A stretch of 64,000 nt of DNA from Bacteroidota bacterium. Its GTDB lineage: Bacteria; Bacteroidota; Bacteroidia; Flavobacteriales_F; PHOS-HE28. Under the pieces are notes generated by a model. That model was not told the DNA's origin. It was given only the letters and a program-made list of their open reading frames with translations, and ran no database searches. The position numbers and the translations under genes were made by a program. Numbering within the stretch: position 1 is the first letter of the stretch; each line of letters starts with the position of its first letter. The DNA is taken from contig JAFDZF010000180.1 of NCBI GenBank assembly GCA_018267055.1, positions 2,457-66,456 of the forward strand, in the 5' to 3' direction. Positions 15,270-26,506 of this stretch are shown here, piece after piece.

Positions 15270-18200
15270 ATGGACCGCGTTCCCGTCCCGAACACCCCCG
15301 TAACCGCCTCGTTCGAACGCACCTCTGCACGCCTCCCCCATGCCGCCGCGCTCCAGGCGGGGGAACAGGTCCTCTCCTATGCCCAGCTGGACCGGAGCGC
15401 CGCGATCCTCGCCGCGAAGCTGAGCGCCCAGGGCGCCGGGCCCGGCCGCACCGTCGGCCTCTGCCTGGAGCGCTCCCCGGAACTGATCATCAGCGTCCTC
15501 GGCATCCTGAAGGCCGGGAGCGCCTACGTCCCCATCGACCCGAGCTACCCCGCGGACCGGATCGCCCTGATGCTGGAGGATGCCCGCCCCCCGGTGGTGA
15601 TCACCGACCGGGCCCACCGGCACCTGTTCCAAGGTTCCCCCGCCACGGTGCTGCTGATCGAGGAGGTGGACCTGGCCACGGGCCCGGCCCTTGAAGGCCC
15701 CTCGCCCGCCGGGCCCGACGACCTCTGCTACGTCCTGTTCACCAGCGGCAGCACCGGGCGCCCCAAGGGTGTGGCCATGCACCACGCGCCGCTGGCCAAC
15801 CTGCTCGCCTGGCAATGCCGCACCTCGGTGCTCGGCGAAGGCGACCGCACGCTGCAGTTCGCGCCCATCAGCTTCGACGTGAGCTTCCAGGAGCTCTTCA
15901 CCACGTTCGCCCAGGGCGGCACGCTGGTGCTGATCACCGATGAGGACCGCCTGAACAGCACCCAGCTCCTGCGCAAGATCATCGCGCAGGGCATCCACCG
16001 CATCATCGTGCCCTTCGTGGCGCTGCAATACCTCGCGGAAGCCGTGGAGCGCACCGGCGAGGTGCCCACCAGCCTGAAGGAGGTCTTCACCAGCGGGGAA
16101 CAGCTGCGGATCACCCCGGCCATCGCGAACCTCTTCCGGCACCTGCCCGGCTGCCGCTTCTGCAACCAGTACGGCCCCACCGAAGGCCACGTGGTGAGCG
16201 AGCTGGAGCTGAAGGGCGACCCCGCCGCCTGGCCCGCGCTGCCCAACATCGGCACCGCCATCGACCACGTGGCGCTCTACGTGCTCGATGAGGGGATGCG
16301 GCCGGTGAAGCCGGGCGAGGAGGGCGAGCTCTACCTCGGCGGCGCCTGCGTGGCCAAGGGCTACATCGGCCGCGACGACCTGACGGCCGAACGCTTCCTC
16401 CCCGATCCGTTCGCTCCCGGCGGGCGGATGTACCGGACCGGCGACCGGGCCGTGGAGCTGCCCAACGGCGAGATCGACTACAAGGGCCGCATCGACGGCC
16501 AGGTGAAGGTGCGCGGCTACCGCATCGAGCTGGGCGAGGTGGAAGTGGCGATGGAGAAGCACCCCGCCGTGGAACAGGCCGTGGCCAGCGTGCGCGAGGA
16601 CCGGCCGGGGCTGAAGCGGCTGATCGGCTATTACGTGGCCAAGGGCGACGACCCGGGCACGAACGCGCTGCGCAAGCACCTCGCCGCCCTCCTGCCCGAC
16701 TACATGCAGCCGTCGGCCTTCGTGGCCGTGAAGGAGCTGCCGCGTACGCCGAGCGGCAAGATCGACCGCAAGGCCCTGCCCGCGCCCGACGTGAAGCGCC
16801 CCGACCTCGACGTGGCCTTCGCCGCGCCGCGCACCGCCGTGGAACGGACGCTCGCCGACGTGTGGGCCGACCTCCTCGGCATCGACCGCGCCGGCATCGA
16901 CGACAACTTCTTCGACCTCGGCGGCAACTCGCTGCTCAGCATCCAGTGCGTCGCACAGCTCGAAGGCCACGGCCTGAAGCTGCCCATCGTGAAGTTGTAC
17001 CAGCACCCGACCATCCGCGCGTGCGCCGCGTTCCTGGAAGGAAGTGCCGACACCGTATCCCCCGCCGCCATGGCCGCCGCACGCCGCATGACGGTGGACG
17101 GACGTCCGCGGCCCGATGTCGCCATCATCGGCATGAGCGGCCGTTTCCCGGGCGCCCCCGACGTGGATACGCTCTGGCGGAACCTGCTCGACAAGAAGGA
17201 CGGCATCAGCCGCTGGACCGCCGAGGAGATCGACCCGAGCGTGCCGGCCGAGCTGCGCAACGACCCCGACTACGTGAAGGCGCGCGGCGTGATCGCCGAC
17301 GCCGACAAGTTCGACGCGGGCTTCTTCGGCGTGAACCCGAAAGTGGCCGCGCTGATGGACCCGCAGCAACGCGTGTTCCTGGAGACGGCCTGGGCGGCGC
17401 TGGAGGATGCCGCGTACGACCCCGCACAGTTCAACGGGCTCATCGGCGTGTACGCCGGCATGGGCAACAACACCTACTTCACGCGCAACGTCATCGGCCA
17501 TCCCGAGCTCATCGAACAGGTGGGCGACTTCCAGGTGATGACCGCCAACGAGAAGGACTACATCGCCACGCGGCTCGCCTTCGAGTTCGACCTGCGCGGT
17601 CCCGCGCTGAGCATCCACACCGCGTGCAGCACCTCGCTGGTGGCCATCGCCCAGGCCTTCAAGGCGCTGCGCGACGGCGAGTGCGACATGGCGCTGGCCG
17701 GCGGCGTCGCCATCACCGCGCCGATCAACAGCGGCATCGTGTACAACGAAGGCGGCATGTACAGCCCCGACGGCGGCACGCGCACCTTCGACGCCGACGG
17801 CAAGGGCACCAGCTTCAGCGACGGCGCCGGCATCGTGGTGCTGAAGCGCCTCGATGACGCGGTCCGCGACAAGGACCACATCTATGCCGTGGTGAAGGGT
17901 GCCGCGCTGAACAACGACGGCAGCGACAAGGCCAGCTTCACCGCGCCCAGCGTGCGCGGCCAGGCCGAGGTGATCGCCATGGCCCAGGCCGACGCGGGCG
18001 TGACACCGGAGCAGATCACCTACGTGGAAGCGCACGGCACGGCCACGCCGCTCGGCGACCCGATCGAGGTGGAGGCGCTGACGCTGGCCTTCGGCGGACA
18101 GCACAACGGCCAGCACTGCGCCATCGGCTCCATCAAGAGCAACATCGGCCACCTCACCGCCGCCGCCGGCGCCGCGGGCGTGATCAAGACCGCGCTCGCG

Positions 18201-25732: not shown

Positions 25733-26506
25733 ATGGCAACGGGTGGACCTCGCTCGCTGGTCACGTTCTGCCACGGACCGGAGACCGCCGTGGTGGCCAC
25801 CGACCTCCCCGCGTTCACGCCGCCCCCGCCGGGCAGCATCGATGCCTGGTACGCGCCGCTGGCCCGCCTGCTGCCGCACCTCGACCGCTTCGCCGCCCTG
25901 CTCGATCCCGTGGAGAACGACCGCGCGGAACGCTTCCGCTTCGCGCACGACCGCGAGCGTTTCATCCTGGGCCATGGCCTGCTCCGTGAACTGCTGGGCC
26001 GCTACCTGAAGCGCGACGGATCGCTGGTCCGCACCGCGCGCGGGCCGTTCGGCAAGCCCTACCTGGAGCGCAAGGACCTGCGCTTCAACCTGAGCGACAC
26101 GAAGGACGCCGTGCTGGTCGCCTTCACCACGAAGCAGGAGGTGGGCGCGGACATCGAGACCATGACGCGCGAGGTGGACCACCACGCGGTGAGCACGCAT
26201 TACTTCACCCCCACCGAGGTGCACAGCATCGCCGAGGCCGGCGACGGCAAGCGCCGCTTCCTGGAGCTGTGGACGCGCAAGGAGGCCGTGCTGAAGGCGA
26301 GCGGCGTGGGCATCATGGACGACCTGAAGGCCCTGCGCGTGGACGCCCCCCGCAACACGATGGTGATCGCCCACGAGGCCTTCGCCCGCATGGCCGCACC
26401 GGAATACCACGTGCACACCTACCAGGTCGGCACGGACCACTTGATCAGCCTGGCCAGCCCTGTTCCGCTGGCGCGGTTGTCCTTGCGGGACGCGGCCGTC
26501 GTTTGA
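25733..26506 (+). CDS. Sfp-type 4'-phosphopantetheinyl transferase
   Basis: Motifs GKPYLERKDLRFNLSDT, GADIE and WTRKEAVLKASGVG. It starts 4 nt after the NRPS stop, at the cluster end. Confidence 0.8.
   Translation: MATGGPRSLVTFCHGPETAVVATDLPAFTPPPPGSIDAWYAPLARLLPHLDRFAALLDPVENDRAERFRFAHDRERFILGHGLLRELLGRYLKRDGSLVRTARGPFGKPYLERKDLRFNLSDTKDAVLVAFTTKQEVGADIETMTREVDHHAVSTHYFTPTEVHSIAEAGDGKRRFLELWTRKEAVLKASGVGIMDDLKALRVDAPRNTMVIAHEAFARMAAPEYHVHTYQVGTDHLISLASPVPLARLSLRDAAVV

Follow-up and report, generated by a model that had tools for sequence, protein, structure and literature searches.

What would be made by a small assembly line that is laid out in part like the β-aminating module of mycosubtilin synthetase, but is headed by an adenylation (A) domain for an amino acid? 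The question is raised by a 64,000-nucleotide stretch of DNA from an uncultured member of the Bacteroidota (contig JAFDZF010000180.1 of assembly GCA_018267055.1, positions 2,457 to 66,456 of the forward strand), referred to here as the window. GC3-guided calling (G+C content at third codon positions) of open reading frames (ORFs), combined with Pfam and NCBIfam scans, delineated three tightly packed, co-directional genes at positions 15270-26506 of its plus strand, named ORF1, ORF2 and ORF3. An earlier note had read them as a hybrid of nonribosomal peptide synthetase (NRPS) and polyketide synthase (PKS) that extends an α-amino acid by one malonate, aminates it at the β-position and joins it to a second amino acid. 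Our analysis supports that proposal and refines it to a proline-type starter and a valine-type second residue. We build here on the observed domain order, catalytic residues, relationship of the aminotransferase (AMT) domain to that of MycA, substrate-specificity types and conservation within the family. With a probability of roughly 0.7, the three genes form a functional operon for a hybrid line of two modules that makes 3-amino-3-(pyrrolidin-2-yl)propanoyl-valine.

The Pfam and NCBIfam matches, with E-values in the three genes that span 1e-15 to 1e-85, far beyond chance, returned the domain order already proposed. ORF1 (15270..21758, 2162 aa) begins with a loading A domain (A1; aa 15-497, 15312..16760; AMP-binding at 1.4e-72, followed by AMP-binding_C) and a first peptidyl carrier protein (PCP1; aa 527-589, 16848..17036; PF00550; GGNSL). 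These are followed by a ketosynthase (KS; aa 616-989, 17115..18236; PF00109 and PF02801, with ketoacyl-synt N at 1e-68 and C at 6e-42) in which the catalytic Cys, His and His are intact, by KS-AT linker families and by an acyltransferase (AT; aa 1137-1422, 18678..19535; PF00698, Acyl_transf_1 at 2.2e-55; GHSIGE and HAFHS). An acyl carrier protein (ACP; about aa 1536-1605, 19875..20084; GLDSL) was recognized as the second of two PP-binding (PF00550) stretches, and the class-III AMT domain (aa 1648-2096, 20211..21557; Aminotran_3, PF00202, at 8.4e-48) comes after it. The Pfam scan of ORF1 found no ketoreductase (KR), dehydratase (DH), enoylreductase (ER) or methyltransferase (MT) between AT and ACP. 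A C-terminal tail (aa 2097-2162, 21558..21755), which lies past the region aligned to the MycA aminotransferase and has no Pfam match, is a possible docking element toward ORF2; the C-terminal region comprising aa 2061-2162 has a mean identity of 69% within the family.

ORF2 (21773..25729, 1318 aa) encodes the second module, with a condensation (C) domain (21848..23143; PF00668 at 1.9e-84; HHVICDGWS), an A domain (A2; 23243..24700; AMP-binding at 2.6e-85), PCP2 (24791..24979; PF00550; GGHSL) and a thioesterase (TE; 25073..25726; PF00975 at 1.7e-16) with its serine in GYSFGG, its Asp in LLDTY and its His in GDHYSM. The start of ORF2 is most likely the TTG at 21773, 15 nt past the ORF1 stop, because it aligns with the ATG of the MEKFI..PVDFDPF N-terminus in homologues, most of which have ATG at that position; an overlapping GTG at 21692 is the less likely start on the same alignment. 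ORF3 (25733..26506) begins 4 nt past the ORF2 stop and encodes an Sfp-type 4'-phosphopantetheinyl transferase (PPTase) with the two-lobed ACPS fold (AASDHPPT_N, PF22624, and ACPS, PF01648); its best NCBIfam match, HetI, scores 98.6 bits, below the equivalog cut-off of 370. Spacings of 15 and 4 nt are the layout of an operon, and no frameshifts or internal stops were found across its 11.2 kb.

All core motifs named in the earlier note could be read in the translations, including A3 (SGSTGRPKG), A4 (FDVSFQE, with Asp235) and A10 (PSGKIDR) of the A domain and TACSTS, EAHGTAT and KSNIGHL of the KS. Across 47 ORF1 and 66 ORF2 homologues, the catalytic motifs were invariant or near-invariant: GGNSL, GLDSL and TACSTS were invariant in ORF1, HGTAT and N[IVM]GH were conserved and the AT motifs were kept in 46-47 of the 47 proteins, while HHxxxDGWS and the PCP2 and TE motifs were conserved in ORF2. 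The KS cysteine (in TACSTS) and the lysine of the AMT that binds pyridoxal phosphate (PLP), two residues whose loss would have spoken against an active line, were both retained on alignment.

The best relatives of solved structure for the AMT domain are those of the MycA aminotransferase (6KFM and 6KFU; E 2e-124, 419 bits), whereas glutamate-1-semialdehyde (GSA) aminomutases reach approximately 170 bits. The alignment with MycA spans the whole domain, from LTPQQR to GFMPE, and includes the N-terminal extension upstream of the GSA aminomutase-like core; TYGKVIGGG, with the PLP lysine, aligns with TYGKIIGGG of MycA, and the lysine is kept in 47/47 homologues. The domain immediately follows the ACP in a KS-AT-ACP module without a KR, and the C domain comes next, encoded by ORF2 after a gap of 15 nt. 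The AMT of MycA aminates an ACP-bound β-keto thioester with glutamine as the donor (PMC3870968). The ORF1 domain is thus a MycA-type in-line aminotransferase and, by analogy, transamination of an ACP-bound β-keto thioester is predicted for it.

The substrates of the line were predicted from its A and AT domains. The GrsA fragment that served as the reference in the A-domain alignments gave the textbook code DAWTIAAICK at its ten marker positions, which supports its sequence. A1 passed the amino-acid adenylation model TIGR01733 (409.6 bits; cut-off, 317.4) and has Asp235 and Lys517 at the ends of its code, which upholds the view that the line is loaded by an A domain for amino acids and not by a fatty-acyl ligase. 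Its specificity code, DVQIFSQVVK, is the same in 46 of the 47 full-length homologues and equals the canonical proline code DVQLIAHVVK at 6/10 positions. For the A4-A5 specificity region, the top two matches of solved structure were the proline modules TycB1 and GrsB1 (approximately 75 bits), and the next reached at most 44 bits. In a published code table, DVQFVSQVMK and DVQFVAQVVK, which share the unusual Ser301 and/or Gln322 with A1, are listed as proline (PMC9113097). Because of the TIGR01733 score, the TycB1 and GrsB1 matches and these published codes, A1 was assigned to the proline type, and it would activate proline or a very close analogue.

How close such an analogue might be is the point at which a rival explanation arises. 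In the same assembly line, A1 might load hydroxy- or methyl-proline, pipecolate or azetidine-2-carboxylate, which would give a head that is substituted or of another ring size. The A1 code differs from the canonical one at 278, 299, 301 and 322, and the telomycin residue specified by a Ser301/Gln322 code ends as hydroxyproline. Telomycin is the source of the nearest published S301/Q322 code, but the same table gives those codes simply as proline (PMC9113097), canonical proline codes were found in relatives of the same architecture, and there is no proline-modifying gene in or adjoining the operon. On balance, we consider this reading unlikely.

With regard to the extender unit, HAFH is a malonyl signature of AT domains and, judged from the GHSxG serine of GHSIGE together with HAFHS, the AT is of the malonyl type. 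The A2 code obtained from the GrsA alignment, DALWLGGTFK, is one that we take to specify valine in exactly this form. The closely similar DAFWLGGTFK and DAYWWGGTFK are given as valine in the code table (PMC9113097), and A2 was assigned to the valine type on this comparison.

Put together, these assignments suggest the following route. The operon's own PPTase would prime the three carrier domains. A1 would activate L-proline or a very close analogue and load it onto PCP1, the AT would put malonyl on the ACP, and the KS would carry out a single decarboxylative condensation to 3-oxo-3-(pyrrolidin-2-yl)propanoyl-S-ACP, a γ-amino-β-keto thioester whose ketone would persist because no KR is present. 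The AMT would then convert the ketone to an amine, probably with glutamine as the donor by analogy with MycA, to yield 3-amino-3-(pyrrolidin-2-yl)propanoyl-S-ACP, a β,γ-diamino acid with a vicinal diamine. Finally, the ORF2 C domain would join the diamino unit to Val-S-PCP2 and the TE would free 3-amino-3-(pyrrolidin-2-yl)propanoyl-Val, either as the linear compound (predicted C12H23N3O3, [M+H]+ 258.181) or as a lactam with a seven-membered ring through the C3 amine (predicted C12H21N3O2, [M+H]+ 240.171). We infer the chemical steps, the amino donor, the stereochemistry, the release mode and the biological role; for the chemistry, we draw on the analogy with MycA and on standard assembly-line logic.

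A second rival concerns the fate of the ACP thioester. If the free pyrrolidine nitrogen attacked it ahead of the condensation with valine, a bicyclic pyrrolizidinone, either 1-aminopyrrolizidin-3-one or the 1,3-dione, would be the real or major product, and ORF2 would be used only partly. γ-Amino thioesters readily give five-membered lactams, a point of chemical reasoning, and the extra type II thioesterase gene that is found in a subclade of the family (see below) would suit frequent stalling. Against this stands an ORF2 whose C, A, PCP and TE motifs are kept intact in about 66 genomes and which in some genomes is duplicated or extended, an outcome that is hard to square with its bypass. We regard the shunt as improbable.

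Still less can be said for a pathway of the iturin/mycosubtilin or microginin type, with a fatty-acid starter and a lipo-β-amino acid as its outcome. The order KS-AT-ACP-AMT-C is common to both and the AMT is near that of MycA, but A1 lies above the TIGR01733 cut-off, carries Asp235 and Lys517 and resembles proline-activating A domains, and just one further module follows; with an amino-acid A domain as the starter and a single module downstream, the fatty-acid-primed reading was rejected as highly improbable. Equally remote is a silent or decaying relic without a product, for which the TTG start of ORF2 might speak and which was rejected in view of open frames throughout the 11.2 kb, intact and conserved catalytic residues, and a conservation of ORF1 that exceeds that of the neighboring housekeeping genes.

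Several points weigh against the proposed route to the diamino dipeptide. The sequence comes from a metagenome-assembled genome (MAG). The departures of the A1 code from the canonical one are compatible with a proline derivative or some other cyclic imino acid as the substrate, and the free secondary amine of the starter could self-lactamise on the ACP before the condensation. Hydrolysis and cyclization by the TE are not told apart by its sequence. No transporter, regulator or tailoring gene is visible in the operon and, lastly, NCBIfam and the literature, without MIBiG, yielded no characterized product of this cluster or of relatives with the same architecture.

The conservation of the locus was analyzed in related genomes. 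Relatives of the AMT region occur in at least 133 species-representative genomes. The best 80 of these are 79-91% identical over that region; almost all of them are MAGs of uncultured organisms entered as 'Flavobacteriales bacterium', and the sample names of many refer to activated sludge. In nearly all of the 80 loci, the gene order is that of a thrombospondin type-3 (TSP3) repeat protein, ORF1, ORF2, PPTase, RecD, DUF3822, CoaD, thioredoxin-like and NUDIX. Median identities of the homologues to the window genes were highest for ORF1 (82%, from 56 loci), followed by CoaD (71%), RecD (70%), ORF2 (62%), PPTase (55%), DUF3822 (52%) and the thioredoxin-like gene (49%). When all genome pairs were compared, ORF1 was conserved above RecD in 89% and above CoaD in 94%. 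Within ORF1, the KS, AT, AMT and PCP1 parts are 87-91% identical and the linkers 40-70%.

Pairwise identities of ORF1 form a narrow plateau around 0.80 and follow those of the flanking genes weakly (rho -0.03 to 0.22, vs. 0.37 for RecD with CoaD). Such a plateau would be expected if constraint is strong and the sites free to change are saturated, with recombination as an alternative, and only synteny argues for vertical inheritance of the locus. The A2 code varies: among the homologues, 43 A2 codes are of the valine type, 6 of the isoleucine type, several are leucine/isoleucine-like and one is of the glycine type. The pairing of a fixed enzyme for the head with a second module that differs between genomes suggests that the warhead is conserved and its specificity tunable.

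Variants of the operon were found in a number of these loci. In the three related genomes L019 (10547-18563), L027 (11381-19461) and L028 (10427-18471), ORF1 is followed by a tandem pair of C-A-PCP-TE genes, both of which have a TE, and their A codes differ (DA[LI]VMGGVMK and DALWLGGTFK), which suggests two alternative terminating modules fed by one ORF1. L067 (11373-18512) has, in place of ORF2, a gene for a single fused protein, C-A-PCP-C-A-PCP-TE (2379 aa), which would give a three-residue version of the product. A subclade with a GC content of about 0.61 (L003, L049, L005, L007, L017 and L030) has an extra gene of approximately 245 aa between ORF2 and the PPTase gene; in L003 (15452-16210) and L049 (15388-16125) it matches PF00975, consistent with a type II thioesterase, and in the other four loci it was recognized only from its position and size. 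In L079 (4862-11383), ORF1 carries a replaced loading A domain with the code DALNLGGRIK; its overall identity is 66%, and the remainder is conserved. Finally, L072 (4910-11536), on a contig labelled 'Gemmatimonadaceae', has an ORF1 homologue that is 77% identical and stands without ORF2 and PPTase among genes for an M28 peptidase, an enoyl-CoA hydratase and an FGGY kinase; this solitary ORF1 could have arisen by transfer or rearrangement, or the bin could be mislabelled. ORF2 is missing from L037 as well.

In-line AMT domains are known from lines primed by fatty acids or polyketides, such as those of the iturins and microcystins, and priming by an amino acid should yield β,γ-diamino acids instead, a building block for which we found no described biosynthetic route. 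It is possible, and we propose it tentatively as somewhat less than an even chance, that the clade makes an undescribed scaffold, a vicinal-diamine pseudo-dipeptide in which the head, derived from proline, is fixed and the aliphatic tail varies, as a lineage-defining trait of abundant uncultured Flavobacteriales of wastewater and freshwater. If this were true, the constraint on the head-forming enzyme, tighter than that on the neighboring housekeeping genes, would point to signalling or to a specific conserved target, for which a metal ion or a metallo-peptidase are examples, and Bacteroidota, Myxococcota and Proteobacteria would commonly use this chemistry with other amino acids as starters. 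A role in peptidase inhibition or metal binding is speculation from the vicinal diamine and the pattern of conserved head and variable tail. Some carriers of the family are in culture and amenable to genetics, and the operon spans no more than 11.2 kb, which makes the prediction directly testable.

The genes around the operon are unrelated to it, which agrees with a self-contained three-gene line. Upstream, divergently oriented on the minus strand, lie two giant TSP3 repeat proteins, at 3125-9535 (2136 aa) and 9755-15073 (1772 aa), the former of which carries a C-terminal sorting domain of the type IX secretion system (T9SS); a homologue of the TSP3 protein holds the position upstream of the operon in most related loci. 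Downstream are genes for a RecD-like helicase, a DUF3822 protein, a CoaD-like cytidylyltransferase, a thioredoxin-like protein, a NUDIX protein, a phosphoribosyltransferase and an ABC exporter, and the further genes of the window are ordinary housekeeping genes. T9SS sorting domains, DUF3822, a window GC content of 0.64-0.72 and the 100% identity of ORF1 to an NCBI protein labelled 'MAG: Bacteroidetes bacterium' are in line with the high-GC Bacteroidota background proposed before.

In the range 19-24 kb downstream, another AMP-binding enzyme, which resembles acyl-CoA ligases (AMP-binding_C_3; 44271-47219, plus strand), and a PhyH-family Fe/2-oxoglutarate dioxygenase (50578-51552, plus strand) were observed, and nothing ties either of them to the operon. 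A ribosomal RNA operon suspected at 41.8-47.2 kb was rejected, as the region is protein-coding and holds a DUF2807 protein and the AMP-binding, acyl-CoA-ligase-like gene. An Rfam scan of the whole window gave no match. Further, a scan of 14900-28100 for sigma-70 promoters and terminators gave nothing over shuffled expectation, as expected for Bacteroidota.

How does the locus compare with known systems? The earlier note could name no equivalent, and this holds as far as NCBIfam and the literature reach: none of the pathway-specific (equivalog) NCBIfam models reached its cut-off among the best 25 matches per protein, and the literature offered no product, but the architecture itself is widespread and was listed in 2013. 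In a survey of PLP domains from that year, Pedobacter heparinus C6XWU5 is given as 'A-CP-KS-AT-CP-PLP1, Nrp-Mal-Gly', with no product stated (PMC3870968); a survey of NRPS genes in activated sludge gives no detail on the window cluster (PMC10681181). When the AMT region was searched against a protein library clustered at 50% identity, 2843 proteins matched at E < 1e-30, and the best 150 were parsed with the window's own domains. About 80 of these 150 had the order A-T-KS-AT-ACP-AMT (T being the carrier domain) with a genuine A domain, and several were fused to C-A-T-TE in one protein. Among the loading A domains of the nearest proteins with the same architecture, 33 of approximately 83 had DVQ-type proline codes, including the canonical DVQFIAHVVK, DVQFVAHVVK and DVQYIAHVVK; the remaining codes included valine, threonine or serine types, and the downstream A domain was most often of the glycine type.

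Full-length homologues in cultured Corallococcus, Spirosoma, Mucilaginibacter and Gilvimarinus are 48-50% identical to the query P0186, to which the window protein P0001 is related just as closely (49%). The proteins of Mucilaginibacter gotjawali, Spirosoma foliorum and Corallococcus exiguus, like Pedobacter heparinus C6XWU5, share the domain layout and the DVQ-type loading codes of the window, but their second residue is of the glycine type (DILQ... codes), whereas the window clade has valine, isoleucine or leucine types. Mucilaginibacter gotjawali (L083) has the same three genes, PPTase included, Spirosoma foliorum (L081) has two synthetase genes, and Corallococcus exiguus adds a second glycine module (the third module overall) and two hydrolases. 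In both L081 and L083, the operon adjoins exopolysaccharide/capsule genes (GT2, Wzy, Bac_transf, OEP and polysaccharide synthase), and a small set resembling type II fatty acid synthase (FAS) genes and a lanthipeptide dehydratase lie upstream in L083.

With MycA (mycosubtilin) and ItuA (iturin), the window cluster shares the KR-less order KS-AT-ACP-AMT followed by a C domain. In MycA, an acyl ligase supplies a fatty acid as the primer, and the module feeds the line of a heptapeptide lipopeptide; in the window, by contrast, the primer is of the proline type and sits on A-PCP, the AMT is the last domain of ORF1, the C domain works in trans from ORF2, and only one more residue is added. The features that mark the iturin and mycosubtilin systems, a fatty-acyl-AMP ligase starter and a multi-module line, are absent from the window cluster, which, since it does not have the fatty-acyl starter, is not an iturin-type lipopeptide pathway. 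The lines for detoxinine (detoxins/rimosamides) and dolaproine (dolastatin 10) offer the opposite comparison, as proline loaded by an A domain is extended there by one C2 unit on KS-AT-ACP and a KR reduces the ketone to a hydroxyl; with an AMT in place of the KR, the 3-amino analogue would be expected from the window. In McyE and NdaF, which act in the formation of Adda in microcystin and nodularin, an in-line AMT likewise connects a PKS module to a C-A-PCP module, but their substrate is a long polyketide chain and their lines are much larger, in contrast to the aminoacyl starter and the small line described here. We conclude that the locus belongs to an orphan, widespread class of amino-acid-primed, β-aminating NRPS-PKS lines, of which the window clade is a strikingly conserved branch.

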